A DNA stretch of 62,496 nt, the filler included, from Dimargaris cristalligena (lineage: Eukaryota), in the NCBI GenBank assembly GCA_003614675.1. It is 5 parts of 5 records of this genome, joined end to end, with 100 filler letters (N's around TTAATTAATTAA, not from the genome) between each part and the next. Parts side by side here need not be neighbours in the genome. Positions count along the whole stretch, not along the records: positions 50,200 to 62,496 come from ML003044.1; 4 more parts are not named here. One strand, given 5' to 3'. The notes below the pieces were generated by a model. The model worked only from the letters and a program-made list of their open reading frames with translations, did not search any database and was not told the origin of the DNA. Both the position numbers and the translations under genes were made by a program. Of this stretch, positions 44,980-62,496 are shown in pieces (the first letter of the stretch is position 1; every line of letters starts with the position of its first letter).

Positions 44980-46350
44980 CAGTATGAGGGGGTGAGTATA
45001 TATAGGGTTTATTGGAGTAAACTAGGGGGTAAGAATAAGCTGAGGAATTAAACCAGTCTTAAGGGGGCCCAGTTATATATATGTGGGGACAACTCCAGAG
45101 GGAGGTCCCAAGGGAAGACTATGGGTAACTAAGGTATATAGTGAGAATAGGCCAACTGGATGGCTACTAGGATTTGGAAGACTCTCAGGGTAACTAGAAG
45201 AGTCTTTGGATCAGCATGTTGAGTGATTAATGTAGAGAGCTGGAGTCTGGAAGGGGAAGGGTTATATTGCAGCCAGAAGAGGCCTCCCCCCCATAGGATA
45301 GAGGCTGATCTCCCCCACAGCAACTCCTCCCTGAGGGAGGAAGACCCACAGGACTATGGCAGAGATAGGCCAACCCCCCCAATGGCACAAAAGTAGTACC
45401 TCATCCAGGAGGAATAAAATATACCAACCCGAGTAGCCAGCTATTGTTTCTTGTCTTGGAAATAAATACTTACTTTATATTTCAACATGTTTAAATCATT
45501 ATTTATTTACCTGCCCCACTTGGCATCCTTTAACTATTTCACCTATAGTTCCTGGCCCTACTTGGCCCACTCGGTTACAATATGATATAGGGTAATCCCA
45601 TAGTACCAGGGATGACCATGGGAAGGTTAATATGGTGCTATAAGGCCTAATAAGGGTGGACAGTATGGTGTTTAGATTAAGGTAGATTAGAAGGGCTAAT
45701 ATTAACCAGGGTTATGTTGTATTAATCATTGTTATTAGTCATCTGGGATGAGCAAAATATGTGAGGTCCAGTGTGGCACCAAGTAATTTATGCCAATAAC
45801 CCTAATCTACCTATGTGTTTCTTTGCATGCCTGTAGTAATACAACTACAAAAATAATGGTTTATAGAACCATGATAGCACTCCAGCAGACATTTGTTAGG
45901 TTGGGAGACTGTGGTGCAAATATTTGTCAACTCACTGTATTAACCATAATGGGGCCCACACAGGAATATACCATCCAGATAAATGTATGCATCAATGGAA
46001 GTCCCAATAAACGGGCTGCCTTGGACCAGGTTGGATGGGGTATGAAAGCATTGCCTATGGGTGCCTTGTGAAGGCAATACAGGACAGAGTGTCTTTTTAA
46101 AAAAGTATGTATGGCTGGGGATGGGAGGGAATTGCTTGGCAGTGGACAGTTGATGGTCTAGTGGGTGTGTAGATGCCATGGCCAGCAGTGTGCATTGGGG
46201 GTTTGATTGCTCTAATGCATAATGCTTACACTCCCCTCCCTTTTTCCCATTTGCTTGTTTCATGGAGAACAGAGTATTGGGGTCCAGCTGAACTTGAGCT
46301 ATGGGTATGACATATTACAGGCATTTTTACTTGGGTCACCTATGTTGGGG
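44980..46350. other. CpG-depleted non-genic island, possible decayed transposon
   Basis: Only 3 CpG in ~1.37 kb by manual count. Contains a TGTGGGG..CCCCACA-bounded segment at 45082-45319. Confidence 0.45.
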
Positions 46351-47438
46351 GGAGGCACGGTTAAAGAGTGGTCAGGTGGGCTTGCTATCCAAAGCCGTGG
46401 TTCAAGCTTTTGTTTTTTATTAGATGAGATCCCACTGTATTGGGTTCGGTGGACGCCCCCTGGTGCAGTAGATAGAGCAGGTGGAGATGTATCTATTCAA
46501 TTAAATTAGCTTTTTTATTGCATTGGCCCGGTGTGCTTACTTTCTCACATAGTCGTCATCTACTTGCCTTTTTCACCCTTCGGTTCTTCCACACACCTAT
46601 CCCTCCCCCGATATGCAAGCCCAATTGCCTGACTATGAAGTAATACTAACTGGTCAGCGATAACCACCTTATACATCAGCTCCACCATCCTGCTAGTTTC
46701 CTACTGCGTGATTAGCTTCTACCGCTAAGACTATTTTCTTCCCCTAGCCCTATGTGTTCAGCATGGTTAAAGTTGCTGATACTGCCTCAATGGGCGAGAG
46801 CGGAGGGGGTTGAGTGAATCAACAGTGTAGTGCGTCGGTATCATAGTGGTTTGCGATCTCTGCCATAGCCAATTACATTTTTTCCAACTTCTACTGACCC
46901 AACCCACTCATCGGGGGCGTATTCCCAGGTAGAGCTAATCAGATTAATGGATACGACAATAAGAAAACCACAAAACCACCTTTGCCGGGCTTCTTTGGGT
47001 CTGAGTTGGTCCAGAGAAATGAAGAAAGCAGTTTGGTGATCAATGGGAGAGTGGTCTCCGGGGCCAGTAGACGAGAGGCGGCCCAATTAAGCTTCCAAGC
47101 AGTCACTGCAAGGGATGGGCAGGAAGTTGGCATGTAAGCCGTAGTTTGACGGGGACTGGGGAAGGATTGATTAGGATGTCGAAATAATATAAATAGAAGG
47201 GGAGTCTGGTTAAGGCTGGTCTCCCTATCTTTCGCCGCTTTAGTTCACTTTGATCTGCCAACAATTCGGACCTTCAACCATCTAACCCATCCCTTACTTA
47301 ACTGCCCATGTTCATCGCAATGGAACCCTCACCATTACACTATTAATAACTCTTTGGACTTTGTCCATCCTCAGCACCTACCTTTGGGCCTGCCCTCGTA
47401 TTACCTCCGGGGATTCTACCCCCATTTTCTCGGGCAGC

Positions 47439-54051: not shown

Positions 54052-57000
54052 ATGCCCAAGGTACCCCGTTCGCGCCGCGGCGCCTCGATTGACTACGATA
54101 AAGTTTTTGCTTCTTCGGATAACGAAACTTCGGACGTGGACGCCGAAATTCTCCGTTATGACGACATCGAGCTTCCGTCTGACGACCAATTGAGCGATGG
54201 CTCGGACAGTGACGATGTTGCCCCAGAGATAAACCTAAGCGATTCGGATAGCGATGCTAGTGATACCTCCGAGGATGCCGCCGAGTCCGATAATGAACTT
54301 AACACCATATACGATGATCTCCTACTAACCGAAGACGATAATGATAATGCCAACGATCCGCTCAATCCCCTGGCTGAGCCTCCCACCAGTGGTGTAGTCG
54401 GTAAAAAGAGGCGTAAGCGGCAGCGCGCCGAAGAAAAAGAGGCCGATTACGAAAGAAAACCCCGGACGGCCATGGCCGGCATCGAAGAGGAGGATGAAGA
54501 TTCGGAAGCCTTGCCCATTAAATTGGCCAATGGCCGTATTGTGCGGCCCCGTAGATCGGCCCCAGAACATCCCCGCTCCCAATTACTCAAAGCCGCCGAG
54601 CCCATCCCCGTCGAGCCGGTTGCTGAGGAGCCCACTGCGACCTCGTCCCGGAGGAAGGCCCGGGCCAAGAAAGCCGACGAAATCGATATCTCGGCCATGT
54701 CCAAAAAGGAGGCCAGCCTCTTCATTCGTAATTATCTCGCTGAGGCCGCCCAGACCGTAGTGGAAGACCCCGAAAATGGGATCGATTCCCTCAAGCGACT
54801 CCGGTCCATTACCCTGCAAGTCCGGGCCTACCCCCAGTACCATCGACTAGCCCTCTTGACCCAGCTCGCCGTGTTCAAGGATATTATCCCCGGCTACATG
54901 ATCCGTTCGCTCACCGAGGATGAGAAATCGGCCAAGGTGTCGAAAGAGGTTAAGCAGCTGCGGATCTACGAAGAGAACCTGGTCCGGTACTACCAGCAAT
55001 ACCTGCAGACCCTGGATGAGCTGATCAAGGATAACGAGGCGCATGAGATCACCCACCCCAATCAACCGAGCGTGGCCCAGGTCGCGGTGCAGTGCATGTG
55101 CGATTTGTTGGTAGCCGCCCCCCACTTCAACTTCCGGCTCAACCTGCTCAACTCCATCGTTTCCCGCATGAGCGCCCGGGAGTACACGGCTATTCCACAA
55201 CTCTGTTGCCGGGCCATCACCCAACTTTTCCAACAGGACGAGTCGGGTCAGTACAGTTGCGATGCTGTGTCCATCATATCTAAAATGATTAAGGGCCGGA
55301 AGTACAATGTCCATATTGAGGTAAATACACATTTATGATTCGGATTTACTAACGAATCAAACCGGGGGTTCGCGGACCACGTCGCCATTTATACATCCAC
55401 CGGTATTAATACTCGGGATTCTGGTTTGGCCTGTATTATGTGTATTGACTCACCTTATTTTGTGCCCCATAGGTAATTAAAAGCTTCCTTCACCTTCGGC
55501 TACGTGAAGAGCTTGACCCGAACGTCGTTCGCGAGGGGGACTCAAAAGGCAAGCCCGGGGACTCTAAAACCGGCTTTAAGCGCGGCACCGGGCCCATGAC
55601 CGATATGGGCAAAGCCGCCCATTTGTCCCGGAAAACCCGGAAACATTTGAAGGAAACCCAGCAAGTCCGCAAGGAACTCCAGGTGGCCGATGCCGAGTAC
55701 TCCCAAGAGGAGAAGCAGAAATGGGTTAGTGGTTTAATTATTTACTAATGGGGGCCTATTGCCCGGTAGTTAACTTATGGATGATATTTTCTGTTATTTT
55801 ACACCCATGTCTGTTCTATTTCTCCTAAGCAACATTAGTCAATGCTGACCTTACCGGACTAATTGGGTCGGTTAATGGGTTCATGTTTGTCGAGGAGTCT
55901 TATATTAACCAGATACTATACTACCATTTCCTTATTCACGACCTCACTCCCTCGATTCTAATTACCACAGCATACCGAAACCCTTAAAATGGTATTCATT
56001 ACCTATTTCCGCATTCTGAAGAACAAAGCCTCCAGCAAACTTCTACCCGCCGTACTTGAGGGTCTAGCCAGGTAAGAAACCCCGAATATTAACTACTGGC
56101 CTTTTGTCCAACAGGGCGGGGACTCCTGGCCAATGGTACACTCCCTCCTCCCCTCGCATCCCCTACTATATTATACCCTTTACTCATACATATCCTCTGA
56201 CCTTCACTTTATCATTTGACCTTCCCAACCACTAGATTTGCCCACCTAATCAGTGTCGAGTTCTTCGCCGACTTGCTCTCGATTCTTAAACAAATTATGA
56301 ATGGCGAGCATATCCATCAGAGCGTGGACGAGGACACCGTTGATTCGGACGAAGGCCACGTCCTCGTACCCACTCGTATTACCTTGCTCTGCATTGTCAC
56401 GGCTTTCCAACTCCTGTCAGGGCAAGGTGAGGCGCTGAACATTGACCTGCAGGAGTTCCATACCCAGCTCTACCGGGTCCTCCCGCGGTTGATGGGTAAT
56501 GCGGACCTGGATCAATCCACCCACGACGACCTAAAGGGCCAGATTATTTTGGACGCCAAAGTGGACAGCGAAGCCGCCCTGCTCCTCAAGGCCCTCGAAA
56601 TTCTGTTCTTCAAGCGAGGACAGGTTCCCATCGGACGCGTCGCCGCATTCACCAAGCGGTTAGCCTCGACTGCCATGTACTACCCGCCGGCTGTGGCCGT
56701 CAAGTGCATTACTTTAATTCGAATGCTGTTGACCAAGTACCGCCGTTTGGACCAGCTGTTCAACACCGAGGAGGCGGTGACGAGTGGCGTTTACATGGCC
56801 GAACTAGACGACCCGGACCTGTGTAATCCGTTTGCGACTAGTTTGTACGAGATTCACGTTTATGCGGTAAGCTATACTGGTCGACTGGTACTTATTCCCC
56901 CTCATATATGTTTATATTTTTCTGGATTGCCCATGTAATCTTTACTAACTGCCTTTATATTTATAACCTGTAACCCTTTGAACTGATTTAATAGAAACAC

Positions 57001-57066
57001 TACCACCCGAAGGTTCGGTCTGAGTATGCTTTGCTGATGAAGCAATGTCGGAGTCTCTGCGAGTAG
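54052..57066 (+). CDS. NOC3: Nucleolar complex protein Noc3, 5 exons
   Basis: [77 protein letters not shown]. Confidence 0.93.
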
Positions 57067-57683
57067 CCGTAACCTGACCCATTCTCCCTTGATTAATTCC
57101 TCCCGCTGGGCCCGGTTCATCAGTCCCTGCACCAGTCGATAGCACTGGATTCATTAGCACATACAAGACTCGCATATTCCCCGCTGCTTTTAATTAAATC
57201 TTATCAAGTATAAAATCCCTGGTTTATAATGTTTGACATTGGAGAGACGTGTTTTGAAATGTAATTTGTTGCACCAAGTGTGATGGCTCGAAAGCGTTAC
57301 CTGGTTACTATACAAATTATAATGACGTGTATTTACTTGAAGGGCAATCAGTATAGTATGAGCCACTAAATATCCCACTTGGGTGGGACTTATAGCCAAG
57401 CAATGACTAAATTGGTAAATCCAATAGTGTGGGGTCTGTTACACTGCTTATAATTTTTTTTCGTTCATATTCCGAATTTCAAAAAAATAATAATTTTAAA
57501 AAGCCACTGGTCTCTTATGCCCCCTTGTTGTTGAATTCAATCCTCATTCTAGCTTTAGTTTTTTATCGGCGTTTGCTACCGAATGGTCCCCATTTCGGCC
57601 CCCATTTTCACCCTTAGAAACCATAGATGTCCATTTGCCTTACCTCGCTTAATATTCGAAACGTTGGGCTAAAAATAGTTACC

Positions 57684-59882
57684 ATGACCAATACCAATAC
57701 CAAAACTAAGACCAAGACTGAAGCCACCCCCGCCAAGACAGCCAACGGCCCTTCCCGGAGCAAAGGCGGTAGTGACCAGGTCGTCTCCATACCTAAACGC
57801 CACGAGGAGGAGCGCAAGCGACTCCCCATTTACTCCGCCCGGGATGCCATTCTCGCCGGAATCAAGAAGCACCCGTCAGTCATTATAGTGGGCGAGACGG
57901 GCAGCGGTAAAACGACCCAGATTCCCCAATATATCCTGGAAGCCGGTTGGGCCCAGTACGGCGCCATCGCGGTCACCCAACCCCGGCGAGTGGCGGCCAC
58001 CAGCCTGGCCCGCCGTGTGGCCGAGGAGGCCGGGACGAAACTCGGCCAACGCGTGGGCTATACCGTGCGGTTTGACGACACCTCTTCACCCCATACTAAA
58101 CTCAAGTATTTGACCGATGGTATGTTAATGCGGGAAATTCTGTCCGATCCTTTGCTCCATCGGTATAACTACGTCCTGCTGGATGAGGCCCACGAACGTA
58201 CCCTGCGAACCGACATTCTGTTTGGTATGCTGAAAGATATCCAAAGTAAGCGGCACCAGCTCAGTCAACGGAAACGGGCCCAGTGGCGGGAAAACCAGGG
58301 CCGGAAATCGACCACACCGGAACCATCGCCCGCTACGGAGGATCCGCCAACGCCCCAGTCCCTGCCCCGAGAGCCCAATGGCTCCGCGACCACCACCCCC
58401 CGCATTGTGGACGAACTCAAGATTATTGTCATGAGTGCTACTTTAGATGCCGAGCGGTTCGCCAAGTACTTCAATAACGCCGAGATTCTTTACGTCGAAG
58501 GTCGCCAGTTCCCCGTGCGGGTCTTCAATACCCTCGAACCCCAACCCGACTATTTAGATTCGGCCCTCGTCACCGCTCTCCAGATCCACACCGAGCAGGG
58601 CCCCGGGGACGTCCTGGTTTTTCTAACGGGTCAGGAGGAAATTGAGAACCTCGAGAAACTCCTCCTGGAACAGCGCCAGCGCCTGCCCGCGGAAGCGCAG
58701 GACCTGTTAGTGTGTCCCCTTTTCGCCGCTCTACCCCCGGCCCAGCAGGCCCTGGTCTTTACGCCGGCGCCCCCGCGCACCCGCAAGATCATTCTCGCCA
58801 CGAATATTGCCGAAACGAGTATCACCCTGCCCGGGATTCGCTACGTCATTGACACGGGGGTGCATAAGTCCCGGGGCTATAGTTCCAAAATCGGCATCGA
58901 GTCCCTGCTTGTGGCCCCCATCTCCAAATCCTCGGCGCGCCAGCGGACCGGTCGGGCTGGGCGCGAGGCCCTGGGGTACTGCTACCGGCTGTACACCGAA
59001 GACGGCTTCGCCCAACTGGAAGAGGATTCCGAACCCGAGATTCTGCGCTGTAATTTGGCGGCGGCCATTCTGCAACTCAAGGCGGCGGGGGTCAATGATG
59101 TCCTGGATTTCGACTACATGGACCGACCCCCCAAACTCGCTTTGCTGCGGGCCCTCGAGCAGTTGTACGCCCTGAATGCCCTGGACGACACCGGTCGGCT
59201 CTCCAAGCTTGGGAAATGGATGGCAGAATTCCCCCTGGACCCGTGCTTTGCCAAAGTGCTCTTTGAATCCCAGGCCCACCAGTGCACCCATGAGGTCATT
59301 GATATTATTGCCCTACTTTCGGTGGATACCCTCTTTATGATGCCCTTCCATAAACGCGAGGAGGCGGCTGAGGCGCGGCAGAAATTCACCAGCCTCGACG
59401 GAGACCACATTACTTTCCTTAACCTCCAAAAAGCCTACCAATCGGTCAAGGGCGACTCCCAGTGGTGCAGCGACCATTTCGTCAACCACAGGGGGATGCA
59501 CCACGTCCAGGAGGTGCGGAAACAGCTCCGTCAGGTCTGCGAACGCGTAAAAGTGAACCCCAACGTTTCCTGCGGCCATGATTTCGACCGGGTGTTGCAG
59601 TGCTTTACCACCGGGTTCTTCCACCAGACGGCCCTTCTCCAACCCGACGGCACCTACCGCTCCGTGATTGGATCCCAGTATGTGCGGATTCATCCTTCGT
59701 CGACGCTGTTTGGAAAGCGCCATGAGGCCATTCTCTACAACGAACTGGTGTTCACTACCCGCCTCTATGTGCGCGGAGTATCTGCTATTCAGGCCAACTG
59801 GATTCCCGAAGCGTCGCCCCGCTATTTCAGGCAGGGTCAGCTCACGGCGAAAGCCGCCTTGCCAAGCGTCAAGGGCCCTTGA
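57684..59882 (+). CDS. DHR2: DEAH-box RNA helicase, Dhr2/DHX33 type, intronless
   Basis: GETGSGKTT, TQPRRVAA, DEAHERT, SAT, TNIAETS, QRTGRAGRE. Short N-terminus and motif details suggest DHX33/Dhr2. Start could be 57627 or 57684 (accATG). Confidence 0.8.
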   Translation: MTNTNTKTKTKTEATPAKTANGPSRSKGGSDQVVSIPKRHEEERKRLPIYSARDAILAGIKKHPSVIIVGETGSGKTTQIPQYILEAGWAQYGAIAVTQPRRVAATSLARRVAEEAGTKLGQRVGYTVRFDDTSSPHTKLKYLTDGMLMREILSDPLLHRYNYVLLDEAHERTLRTDILFGMLKDIQSKRHQLSQRKRAQWRENQGRKSTTPEPSPATEDPPTPQSLPREPNGSATTTPRIVDELKIIVMSATLDAERFAKYFNNAEILYVEGRQFPVRVFNTLEPQPDYLDSALVTALQIHTEQGPGDVLVFLTGQEEIENLEKLLLEQRQRLPAEAQDLLVCPLFAALPPAQQALVFTPAPPRTRKIILATNIAETSITLPGIRYVIDTGVHKSRGYSSKIGIESLLVAPISKSSARQRTGRAGREALGYCYRLYTEDGFAQLEEDSEPEILRCNLAAAILQLKAAGVNDVLDFDYMDRPPKLALLRALEQLYALNALDDTGRLSKLGKWMAEFPLDPCFAKVLFESQAHQCTHEVIDIIALLSVDTLFMMPFHKREEAAEARQKFTSLDGDHITFLNLQKAYQSVKGDSQWCSDHFVNHRGMHHVQEVRKQLRQVCERVKVNPNVSCGHDFDRVLQCFTTGFFHQTALLQPDGTYRSVIGSQYVRIHPSSTLFGKRHEAILYNELVFTTRLYVRGVSAIQANWIPEASPRYFRQGQLTAKAALPSVKGP

Positions 59883-60946
59883 GTCTCTGGTAGATTTATT
59901 TGATGCCTGCCGGGGAGAGACAGAGGGCACCTCTTCAGTATTGGCTTTCCGTAGTTGAGAAACGCCACCGTGAATTGCCATGGCTGGCACAAGTTTCTAT
60001 GGCCGGTAAATACCCGCCACCCCAAATACCCAGTGATGGTATTGAACTGTGCGTCATCACCCTGCCTTGCGACTAGGTGATTTCAATCGTGGCCAATTTG
60101 ATCAATTAGTTTTGGCGAGTCTATTGCTGCCTATTTTTGAGCCAGCTGGTGAGAAATATAGTTTTCGCCGTTATGATTGGTAAGACCGATGTCAACGGGC
60201 AGGTGAACTGAGTGTATTGTTTTCATTCGCAATAATAAATGAACTGGTATATAATGGGCATGGGTTGAAAATGGGGTTATTGGTTATGTTGACAAAGCCT
60301 CCCGTTAAAAGACATCAAAGTAATATTATTGAAAAACTACATCCCAGCTGAAGGGTGGCGTGTCACTACTGCCGGCTTTTTATTTAGACATTAGACTTCT
60401 AATTCCCTTTGGTCAATGCATGGCGACACTGACGACAAGTGTGATTTTGTTGATGCGGAAGGTAATGCTAAACATGTATTCCCAGCCCAGGAATGGCGGA
60501 GAGGAGCTGGTGCCTACAGTTAGTACACCTTTCATTATTATCATACAGTGCATATGTCGCCTTTCCTGCTCAATATGCTGCGCAGAAATCAACTATGCCT
60601 TATAGTATAACCGAATTTTGGCTGCGGCAAACCCATGGCACCATAGTCCAACCACACTTGTGCTTGGCTGCGGCACAGTAATGGAAATACTGCCATTTCT
60701 GTAATGAATATGGTTCGTGTATACGCCAGCTGTCTCGAAGAACCCAACTTGCCCATGACCCGCTCTAAATATCCAGCTATAAATATTTGCGAATGTTTCC
60801 TCTGTAAAATGTCAGTTTAATACACACTTTATTTTCTATTTTTACATACACATTTATAACGCCAATCCCCGTCACCTGTCAACTTCGTTTTCTGCCACTG
60901 AAGGGGCATAGTATCCCGAATAATCGTCAACTTGTTCACTTAAGAA

Positions 60947-61872
60947 CTACGCGGCTGGCTCCAGAGTGTGGAGATAATCCATGAGTTGGATTAGTTTTCC
61001 AGGTAGGGATAAAGATATGATTAATTCCGGCTGGTTATCCTCAACCATACCATAGATACTGGCAAGCTTAGTGCTTATAAGCATGCCATAAGGGAAGTAG
61101 CCAACTGTCATATATTCCTTGATTTGTAATATGCTGTCGACATTCAATTTGACGCACCCCTTACATTCGATAGCCATGAACGGCACGGTCAATATGCGAC
61201 TCCCCAACCCCAGGTGATATATGCTATAGTCGGGTATAACATAGTCGGGGGTGGAATCTATTATTAGTCGCTCCTGCGATTTGCAGTAGTACCCGTTGAA
61301 AGCAAATATGTTCACCATCGGGAGCATTGTACTAACTACCGCCGATACATCCGCTTCGTCATACGCATGGGACACTAGGTACTGTAGAACGTCCATCGCT
61401 ATAGCCCACAAAGACCCGGAAATGGAAGAGTGCATAATTCGTTCCGATGCAATTAAGGCCGCTTTAGGCAACGCCGGTGTTCCTCCTAGCCGGATCAAAT
61501 CGTCAAATTGGCAGACAAGTCGAGGGCCAATGTATCGCACTATTATTACGGTTATGAGGGAGGAGGTAAAAGAGGAAAAGGGGGAATGGCTTATTTTAGT
61601 ATATCGTGGTAAATGCTCAGATGTATATTTAGAAGGCCAAGGCTGGTATTTTAATACCCAGTACCATTATTCTCGTATAGGCAGTGTAGCCCGTAACAAA
61701 GTCCATTGCTACTTAAATGGCAATAAAATCATGAGTGCGCCGTATAACTCTGACGCATTGCAGCAGCTAGCAGGTATTATTATGGAAAATCAATAACCCT
61801 GTTTTAAATAAATCTTTTATATGCACATCGTATTTGTAGAGGTAACTTACATAAGCCTAATGGGGTATACAT
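60947..61872 (-). CDS. PD-(D/E)XK restriction-endonuclease-like protein, about 204 aa, 2 exons
   Basis: Exon 1 61872-61851 (MYTPLGL), GTAAGT donor, TAG acceptor, phase-1 join to exon 2 61539-60947. Motifs IPDY, IECK, QIKEY, YGMLI. Confidence 0.7.
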
Positions 61873-62233
61873 CGGCAGTGGGGTGTCGGTCTCGTTTATT
61901 TAAAAAGCGGTAAATATGAGGGTTTTGAAAAAGAGGAGTGCGAAGTTCGATATTATTAAGAAGCATTGGAAGTTCTAGTAAATTGAGGGGATTAAGAAGC
62001 TTGGCTGATGGCTATTTATATGGCCAATATTAATCCAGAAATAGGTGTAAGTAGGCGTCCGTAAAACATGGTTAAGGAACCCTCGGGGGCCAAATTCCTT
62101 GTTGTACATCAACATCTCGCCCATGGGATGGTGGTGGTTAACTAGTAGAGGTTAGCCCAGGGTTATTAAACTTCATTGACCAGGTTAATGTAAGAACAGA
62201 CTCTAGTCGGGTTGTAGATGGTTATAGTGTACC

Positions 62234-62496
62234 CTAGAAATCTAAAGGTATGTCCAGGGCTGGGGCCCCAGACATATCAGCGTAATCAAGGGGAGTTGAA
62301 TGTTTGTGGTAGCCGGGGTTGGTTCCTGAAATGGTCGAAAGTGTAGCAACACCCTCTATAGCCCTATTAATGTGGTAGCCATAGTCGGTGCCTGTTGTAC
62401 TGCCGTGGGCAGGGACGGGTTTCCGCCCTAAGAGTGGGCCCGGTGGATTACCATTCTTCAACACACCGCACACCTCATGAATCGGTGTGCCGTGCC
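62234..62496 (-). CDS. Possible C-terminal fragment of unknown protein at window edge
   Basis: Frame open to the window end; no motif recognised. Confidence 0.3.
   Translation of the reverse strand, partial: HGTPIHEVCGVLKNGNPPGPLLGRKPVPAHGSTTGTDYGYHINRAIEGVATLSTISGTNPGYHKHSTPLDYADMSGAPALDIPLDF

Follow-up and report, generated by a model that had tools for sequence, protein, structure and literature searches.

A candidate intron-less gene for a highly divergent HsdR-N/RecB-type PD-(D/E)XK domain in Dimargaris cristalligena

The window, i.e. the whole stretch of 62,496 nucleotides of Dimargaris cristalligena DNA that was analysed, contains near its right end an open reading frame on the minus strand (60947–61435). 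On balance we favour the view that this is an unannotated gene without introns, encoding one highly divergent PD-(D/E)XK domain of the HsdR-N/RecB type, and that it represents the surviving copy of a lineage-specific selfish or mobile-derived gene. Confidence is good for the domain itself: the ORF in all probability is, or was, an HsdR-N-type PD-(D/E)XK domain. The genome contains a small family of copies of this gene. At least one of these, which extends into the coding region, is dead and carries stops of the CpG-to-TpG type.

Reading frame, gene model and host

A stop-free frame of 239 codons (P0001) is read on the minus strand from 61666 to the TAG at 60949–60947. Frames of at least 239 codons are expected about 0.004 times per 62.5-kb window by analytic estimate, and this length was reached in 0 of 300 simulated 2497-nt sequences of the local dinucleotide composition, the maximum being 201 codons. 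The earliest in-frame ATG is found at 61435, with an A at the −3 position. The five ordered motifs listed in the first-pass annotation are all present in the order it gave and within this single minus-strand frame. Judged on sequence features, the locus is most simply intron-less, running from ATG 61435 to the stop at 60947 and encoding 162 aa. The features of the locus, including those proposed earlier, are the following:

60947–61435, minus strand: minimal gene model, a single exon of 162 aa from ATG 61435–61433 to stop TAG 60949–60947, with one complete HsdR-N-like PD-(D/E)XK domain
61436–61666, minus strand: upstream open stretch of 77 codons without an in-frame ATG (chance about 0.01)
61360–61346, minus strand: DEADV, first motif in the order
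61252–61241, minus strand: TPDY, preceding IPDY
61237–61226, minus strand: IPDY, the PD motif
61171–61160, minus strand: IECK, the E-x-K motif
61126–61112, minus strand: QIKEY, the Q-xxx-Y motif
61090–61076, minus strand: YGMLI, last motif in the order
61850–61872, minus strand: proposed 22-nt first exon (61872–61851) and first letter of the donor, not supported
61540–61850, minus strand: proposed 311-nt intron (GTAAGT...AATAATAG), not supported
61290–61796, plus strand: antisense 'shadow' frame of 168 codons, judged non-coding; its third codon positions coincide with those of the minus-strand ORF

The 77 open codons that precede ATG 61435 (p about 0.01) are left unexplained by the 162-aa model; they may be a leader, the remnant of a longer frame or a coding part contributed by another upstream exon. 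A hidden 22-nt first exon had been placed here in the first-pass annotation. The resulting gene of two exons and 204 aa (exon 1 at 61872–61851, a spliceosomal intron of 311 nt and exon 2 from 61539) would cover 34 of these 77 codons. The letters of the join exist, with ATG 61872, a GTAAGT donor at 61850 and an AG that places the start of exon 2 at 61539; the donor is perfect, a TAAC-like branch site and a YAG acceptor can be recognized, and the join is in frame. It is, however, just one of 38 in-frame ATG/GT/AG combinations that can be made from five upstream ATGs, and a C>T change at 61870 turns ATG 61872 into ATA in the sole contig that spans this position in runs X3 and X4. Codon 44 (CGA, 61537–61535), which would be the second complete codon of exon 2, reads TGA in every paralogous contig listed. 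Furthermore, the added residues bring nothing to the domain, which starts at about M1 of the 162-aa form and is complete without the intron. On these grounds the two-exon gene is considered improbable, and the single-exon model is retained.

A second way to account for the upstream codons is to regard the nuclease as the last exon of a larger gene, i.e. as the C-terminal portion of a bigger protein such as a multidomain effector or the product of a transposon or retroelement, with the other exons lying upstream or beyond the window. Besides the 77 ATG-less open codons, this reading could draw on the repeated unit described below, which reaches at least 62395, and on the position 62395|62396, where the lack of a bridging contig leaves the true upstream DNA unseen. 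Against it, the frame is interrupted by 11 stops over the 276 codons preceding 61666, no upstream ORF matches Pfam, the domain is complete from M1, and bacterial stand-alone HSDR_N_2 proteins of 155–162 aa exist. A last exon is therefore decidedly improbable, and we continue with the single-exon model. In agreement with the stand-alone organisation claimed at the outset, Pfam detected no other domain in the ORF, whether taken as 162 or as 239 aa, and gave no hits for the adjacent small ORFs. No methylase or specificity gene was found within 1.5 kb on either side. The codon usage of the ORF is atypical, with a GC3 of 0.50 when compared to 0.64–0.78 in clear host genes.

The plus strand was also considered. 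The 168-codon plus-strand ORF (61290–61796) was rejected as the real gene on the basis that it has no family and either no HMM score or one of −1.6 bits. It overlaps the minus-strand ORF and shares its third codon positions, and it can therefore be attributed to the usual antisense shadow. Paralogue changes hit its second and third codon positions, and in this frame the paralogue carries a stop at 61242–61244.

The convergent neighbour at 57627–59882 (plus strand) encodes a DEAH-box helicase of the DHX33 type, which is conserved across fungi. Its best match is a 'DHX33-like' protein of D. cristalligena, identical apart from a 36-residue stretch, followed by proteins of other Dimargaritales (70%); the host is therefore an early-diverging zoopagomycete fungus. 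The public D. cristalligena helicase model excises the 36-residue stretch (58263–58370), which is in frame and of low complexity, as an intron; the window ORF reads through it. In X1, X3 and X4, one contig covers the helicase and most of the nuclease ORF. This linkage identifies the ORF as chromosomal fungal DNA and upholds the earlier claim of host integration. The intron, which had been invoked as the argument against bacterial contamination, is not needed for this, and that argument fails since neither the intron nor the first exon is supported. In the runs of organism B, only short conserved pieces of the helicase were found.

No protein matching the ORF is present in the public collection, though the annotated protein of its neighbour is, and the ORF therefore appears to be unannotated. 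An exact look-up of three window proteins in the public protein collection found none of them. Literature on PDDEXK nucleases and fungal transposons and on transposable elements of Dimargaris yielded nothing bearing on the ORF.

Relationship to the HsdR-N nucleases

The sole Pfam match of the ORF is HSDR_N_2 (PF13588), with an E-value of 0.017 and 15.7 bits, below the gathering cut-off of 25; residues 160–211 of P0001 are aligned with positions 48–100 of the 110-position profile. In 7.3 Gb of plasmid sequence, the best tblastn match (E 2) was an annotated HsdR-N-domain protein of Haloglomus. This protein passes PF13588 itself (E 2.5e-8) and aligns with the ORF motif for motif over PDY, IE.K, Q...Y and YG.L. 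Matches to PF13588 were gathered from 151 archaeal genomes (28 places in 25 genomes), and 27 of the 28 were used to build a family HMM, L020 being omitted for an internal TAG. Against this archaeal HSDR_N_2 HMM the ORF scored 15.6 bits, and 12.6 bits when L004, the Haloglomus sequence retrieved with the ORF as query, was left out. None of 1000 composition-preserving shuffles reached these scores (best 3.7 vs 15.6 and 7.3 vs 12.6, respectively). When the 113 window ORFs of at least 100 codons were ranked by the family HMM, the ORF came first with 12.1 bits vs 1.5 bits for the next. An hhalign comparison of the ORF with the family gave a probability of 70.2% and an E-value of 4e-5 over 75 columns. 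Of the 30 clusters nearest to the ORF in Protein Atlas, 14 are HSDR_N_2; once this family was masked, the named neighbours were all restriction-fold nucleases (HSDR_N, BpuSI_N, MmeI_N, VRR_NUC and PDDEXK_3).

Searches at the level of plain sequence similarity gave a different picture. An exhaustive phmmer search found 0 homologues at E ≤ 1e-3 among 1,835,955,588 (1.84 billion) protein representatives, and the gene is therefore an orphan. Word-indexed protein searches returned 0 hits, PDB sequences contained 0 homologues and NCBIfam 0 family matches, while the PHROGs and PADLOC profiles produced only noise. Likewise, tblastn against phages gave only irrelevant polymerase matches, and 0 related loci were found in the metagenome, prokaryote-genome and viral contig collections. 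Because no donor-like homologue could be detected in the sequence searches, a horizontal origin, which had been put forward as a possibility, is not demonstrable and finds no support here.

The absence of a significant database homologue, the Pfam score under the cut-off and the low-GC, repeat-rich DNA would all suit a chance open frame with fortuitous motifs. The rarity of a frame of this length in a window (about 0.004 expected) speaks against it, as do the family score that none of the 1000 shuffles attained, the codon-periodic divergence of a paralogue described below and the agreement of three independent methods (Pfam, Protein Atlas and plasmid tblastn) on one family. A chance frame is thus highly improbable. 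The original assignment to the PD-(D/E)XK nucleases of the HsdR-N/RecB (QxxxY) type was borne out at the level of remote homology, with all catalytic residues present. These residues were located by means of an alignment, A1, of 28 rows (the ORF and 27 archaeal domains), by the HMM and by hhalign:

61355–61357, minus strand: E27 (of DEADV), aligned with the glutamate that the family conserves in its first helix
61229–61231, minus strand: D69 (of IPDY), in the family's only invariant column
61160–61168, minus strand: E90-C-K92, the (D/E)xK motif according to the HMM, hhalign and A1, with K92 in a column at least 90% conserved
61112–61126, minus strand: Q104-xxx-Y108, the QxxxY helix of RecB/HsdR type, with Y108 in a column at least 90% conserved

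In A1, the residues E27, G49-Y50, E90 and Q104 fall on family consensus positions, and the 'TNG' that follows the fourth strand in the family is replaced by 'IST' in the ORF. Q104 sits 12 residues past K92. A QxxxY helix directly after motif III is described as a signature of the RecB family in a passage of PMC2475608.

The PD motif is tandemly doubled at 61222–61251 (minus strand), where two 15-nt units, identical at 12 of 15 positions, read PDYVI and PDYSI. D64 (of TPDY, 61246–61244) forms part of the other half of this duplication. The HMM aligns the second aspartate, D69, with the catalytic aspartate of the family, and BLASTP aligns the first, D64. In a paralogue the first PD unit reads P-E-H-I.

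Structure prediction gave a mixed result. A single-sequence AlphaFold2 model reached a pLDDT of 34.6 and was unusable. The model driven by the family alignment reached a pLDDT of 79 and a pTM of 0.77, but its confidence is circular because the family alignment drove it, and the same holds for its order of elements, helix-helix-strand-strand-strand-helix-strand. In a Foldseek search with the alignment-driven model, all 10 of the 10 matches at E ≤ 1e-3 were restriction-fold proteins; for the top 10, E-values ranged from 8e-5 to 4e-4 and TM-scores (by query) from 0.37 to 0.63. The solved folds nearest to this model, at 11–16% identity, are the N-terminal nuclease of the type IIL enzyme DrdV (7lo5/7lvv), 9y1l, 3ijm and 3ot2 (DUF820), and the HsdR fragment 3h1t appeared at rank 24 (E 0.022). 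The check by AlphaFold and Foldseek that had been proposed at the outset thus showed a compatible fold in the circular, alignment-driven model and failed with the single sequence.

By the positions of these residues, Mg2+ would be bound by E27, D69 and E90, water would be activated by K92, and the helix carrying Q104xxxY108 would clamp the DNA backbone. The outcome would be a small metal-dependent DNA endonuclease that resembles in its action the nuclease head of type I HsdR subunits and the RecB-family nucleases; no helicase, methylase, specificity, kinase or secretion module is attached to it.

Decayed paralogues and the state of the window copy

Assembly contigs of four public runs were compared with positions 57000–62496 of the window, which revealed a repeated segment:

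61176–62395, no strand assigned: segment present in several diverged genomic copies, with contigs about 81–91% identical, covering the 5' half of the ORF and all of the upstream region

The assembly contigs break at 61440/61584 and at 62395. Paralogue type 1 extends over 61206–61584 with 73 differences (about 81% identity) and overlaps the coding region. Types 2 and 3 extend over 61411/61448–61714, with 36 differences and two 1-nt indels in the one and 23 differences in the other. Across the whole stretch, the predominant changes from the window sequence are C>T and G>A. The counts for the paralogues are partial, the differences listed being 40 of 150 overall and 18 of 73 for type 1; 6 of the 8 transitions listed in the copies are at CpG.

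In the type 1 paralogue, the 12 differences listed for 61240–61274 are distributed 6/0/6 over codon positions 1/2/3 of the minus frame. The replacements among these 12 are conservative (I>V, T>A, D>E, V>I), and 8 of the 18 listed changes are synonymous. The same copy carries at least two CGA>TGA stops of the CpG-to-TpG type. To the left of 61206 it remains colinear and ungapped for at least 30 nt, with 15 of 30 positions identical and 8 more explained as C>T/G>A, an agreement over 30 nt that is equalled at only 0.4% of window offsets; the frame reads WGTILTILI there vs GSRILTVPF in the window. From the codon-periodic changes, the TGA stops and the colinear continuation, we conclude that at least one dead paralogue was formerly under coding constraint in this frame. 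Of the comparison suggested in the first-pass annotation, the search for paralogues thus delivered at least one decayed copy, and that for bacterial, viral or fungal sequence homologues found none. Neither blastn nor tblastn detected further copies within the window, and the region around 59800–62496 contains nothing convincing in the way of terminal inverted, long direct or tandem repeats.

Two observations concern the borders of the locus. Downstream of the ORF, a 128-nt piece at 60619–60746 recurs, with 24 differences, in other contigs of X3 and X4. It begins at a 21-nt direct repeat (60618–60638 / 60664–60684) and is possibly another repeat fragment flanking the gene. On the upstream side, the junction 62395|62396 is bridged by no contig of X1, X3 or X4, so that the final 101 bases of the window may reflect an assembly join or structural variation. 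Contigs that contain 61885–62395 continue differently, and 62396–62496 belongs to a separate repeat contig of higher depth.

The window copy itself shows a CpG observed/expected ratio of 0.92 in the ORF. Over 60947–61440, the runs X1, X3 and X4 have 0 differences from the window. Run X4, which comes from a different study, has 7 differences over 57000–61440 and 0 in 60947–61666. To the left, the 1064 nt separating the two genes contain 5 differences in this run; to the right, there are 11 over 729 nt (61667–62395). At the rate of the flanks about 6 differences would be expected in the ORF, which corresponds to a Poisson P of about 0.002, or of 0.03 when the left flank alone is used. Run X3 is identical to the window over 57000–61440. 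At 61441–61684 only diverged variants were seen in this run, and at 61475–61550 the whole depth has the other letter; this pattern reflects either uneven coverage of the sample or a recombinant upstream region.

These data bear on whether the ORF could be a silent relic, that is, an unbroken pseudogene copy, now neither expressed nor selected, of a nuclease gene that was once active and either mobile or horizontally acquired. Such a relic would agree with an ORF that is both unannotated and an orphan, with its low GC3, with the repeat-rich, low-GC surroundings at a contig end, with the death of at least one sister copy and with the head of the long frame, where an in-frame ATG is missing. The 239-codon frame is intact, however, with none of the six key residues lost. 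The ORF lacks the CpG depletion of this genome's dead repeats and shows 0 strain differences vs 16 in the flanks. Weighing both sides, we find a relic somewhat unlikely, though it deserves serious consideration. The intact frame, the retained CpGs and the lack of strain differences in the ORF give the window copy the look of a living gene. By comparison, a dead block elsewhere in the window (45001–46500) is nearly free of CpG, with 2 observed vs 44 expected in 45001–46000 (observed/expected 0.05) and a ratio of 0.38 in the next kb.

Comparison with known systems and possible origin

The HSDR_N_2/HSDR_N domains (PF13588, PF04313) are the nuclease domains at the N-terminus of type I restriction HsdR subunits, such as that of EcoR124I, and also occur as stand-alone prokaryotic proteins of about 150–170 aa. 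With HSDR_N_2 the ORF shares an aligned catalytic core, consisting of the helix E, D, ExK, QxxxY 12 residues after the K, and a hydrophobic strand. Its size is like that of the stand-alone bacterial HSDR_N_2 clusters, which measure 155–162 aa in Protein Atlas. It differs in its score under the Pfam cut-off, its eukaryotic host, the change from 'TNG' to 'IST' and the 15-nt duplication of the PD motif. The portion of the 2012 survey of the PD-(D/E)XK superfamily that deals with the HSDR_N/HSDR_N_2 group lists it as 'Prokaryota' (PMC3424549). Unlike type I HsdR, the ORF has neither an SF2 helicase/translocase domain nor HsdM/HsdS partners. An HsdR subunit of a type I restriction-modification system was rejected as an identity for the ORF, with no other Pfam domain present and the neighbour being an RNA helicase of the DHX33 type.

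The nearest fungal analogy is provided by the SPOK proteins, meiotic drivers (spore killers) encoded by a selfish gene family, which the ORF resembles in being multi-copy and patchy. As described in sections of PMC6660238, the PD-(D/E)XK domain of the Podospora SPOKs has HsdR as its best HHpred match and carries a QxxxY motif, its catalytic lysine is needed for killing, and a kinase domain of the same protein counters the killing. The same sections depict SPOKs as large Ascomycota proteins with an N-terminal coiled coil, a cysteine cluster and a C-terminal kinase (antidote) domain (PMC6660238). Compared by description, the ORF is unlike them in comprising 162–239 aa with the nuclease domain only and no partner domain. 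Membership in the SPOK family was rejected, no kinase or coiled-coil domain being found within or beside the ORF, and the search of the protein representatives revealed no sequence similarity to proteins of this kind.

Crinkler (CRN)-type effectors are eukaryotic, lineage-expanded proteins in which toxin domains of the restriction fold (REase) are combined with header domains. The ORF is unlike these in lacking any header or trafficking domain at its N-terminus, and it showed no similarity to them. In non-LTR retrotransposons of the R2/NeSL type, a restriction-like endonuclease (RLE) is located at the C-terminus of the reverse-transcriptase ORF. An R2/NeSL RLE was rejected as well, the upstream ORFs having no RT or any other Pfam match up to the window end and the frame containing 11 in-frame upstream stops.

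We read the ORF as a surviving copy, still or until recently active, of a lineage-specific nuclease gene of selfish or mobile-element origin. Duplicates of it would have been silenced and then eroded by the C-to-T repeat decay of this genome, and its cellular role could be that of a toxin, of a defence nuclease or of a nuclease encoded by an element. Of the origin first suggested, the selfish or mobile part agrees with the presence of decayed paralogues and with the unusual codon usage, and the horizontal part drops out. A more specific version is put forward tentatively and is in our estimation unlikely. In it, the window would carry the only copy still intact of a selfish nuclease gene specific to Dimargaris, either a drive/addiction-like toxin or the sole enzyme of an undescribed small mobile element, and a C-to-T repeat defence would be extinguishing the family.

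If expressed and active, the ORF would be a rare eukaryotic stand-alone member of the HsdR-N/RecB-type nuclease group and, after the ascomycete SPOKs, would provide a second fungal context for a multi-copy, patchily retained and possibly selfish domain, here in a mycoparasitic zoopagomycete. If the selfish-gene reading is true, a restriction-type nuclease family listed for prokaryotes would exist as an autonomous selfish gene in an early-diverging fungus. If the ORF is a relic, it would be an ordinary orphan ORF, and the chief value of the analysis would lie in the corrected gene model. The locus also offers a natural experiment on repeat decay, one copy having kept its CpGs and its frame and its sisters carrying CpG-to-TpG stops.

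Finally, the three clusters nearest to the ORF in Protein Atlas (0.91–0.92) are unnamed 'hypothetical protein' families of 195–241 aa from Ascomycota. These may perhaps form a fungal family of comparable small, nuclease-like proteins that has so far escaped recognition.
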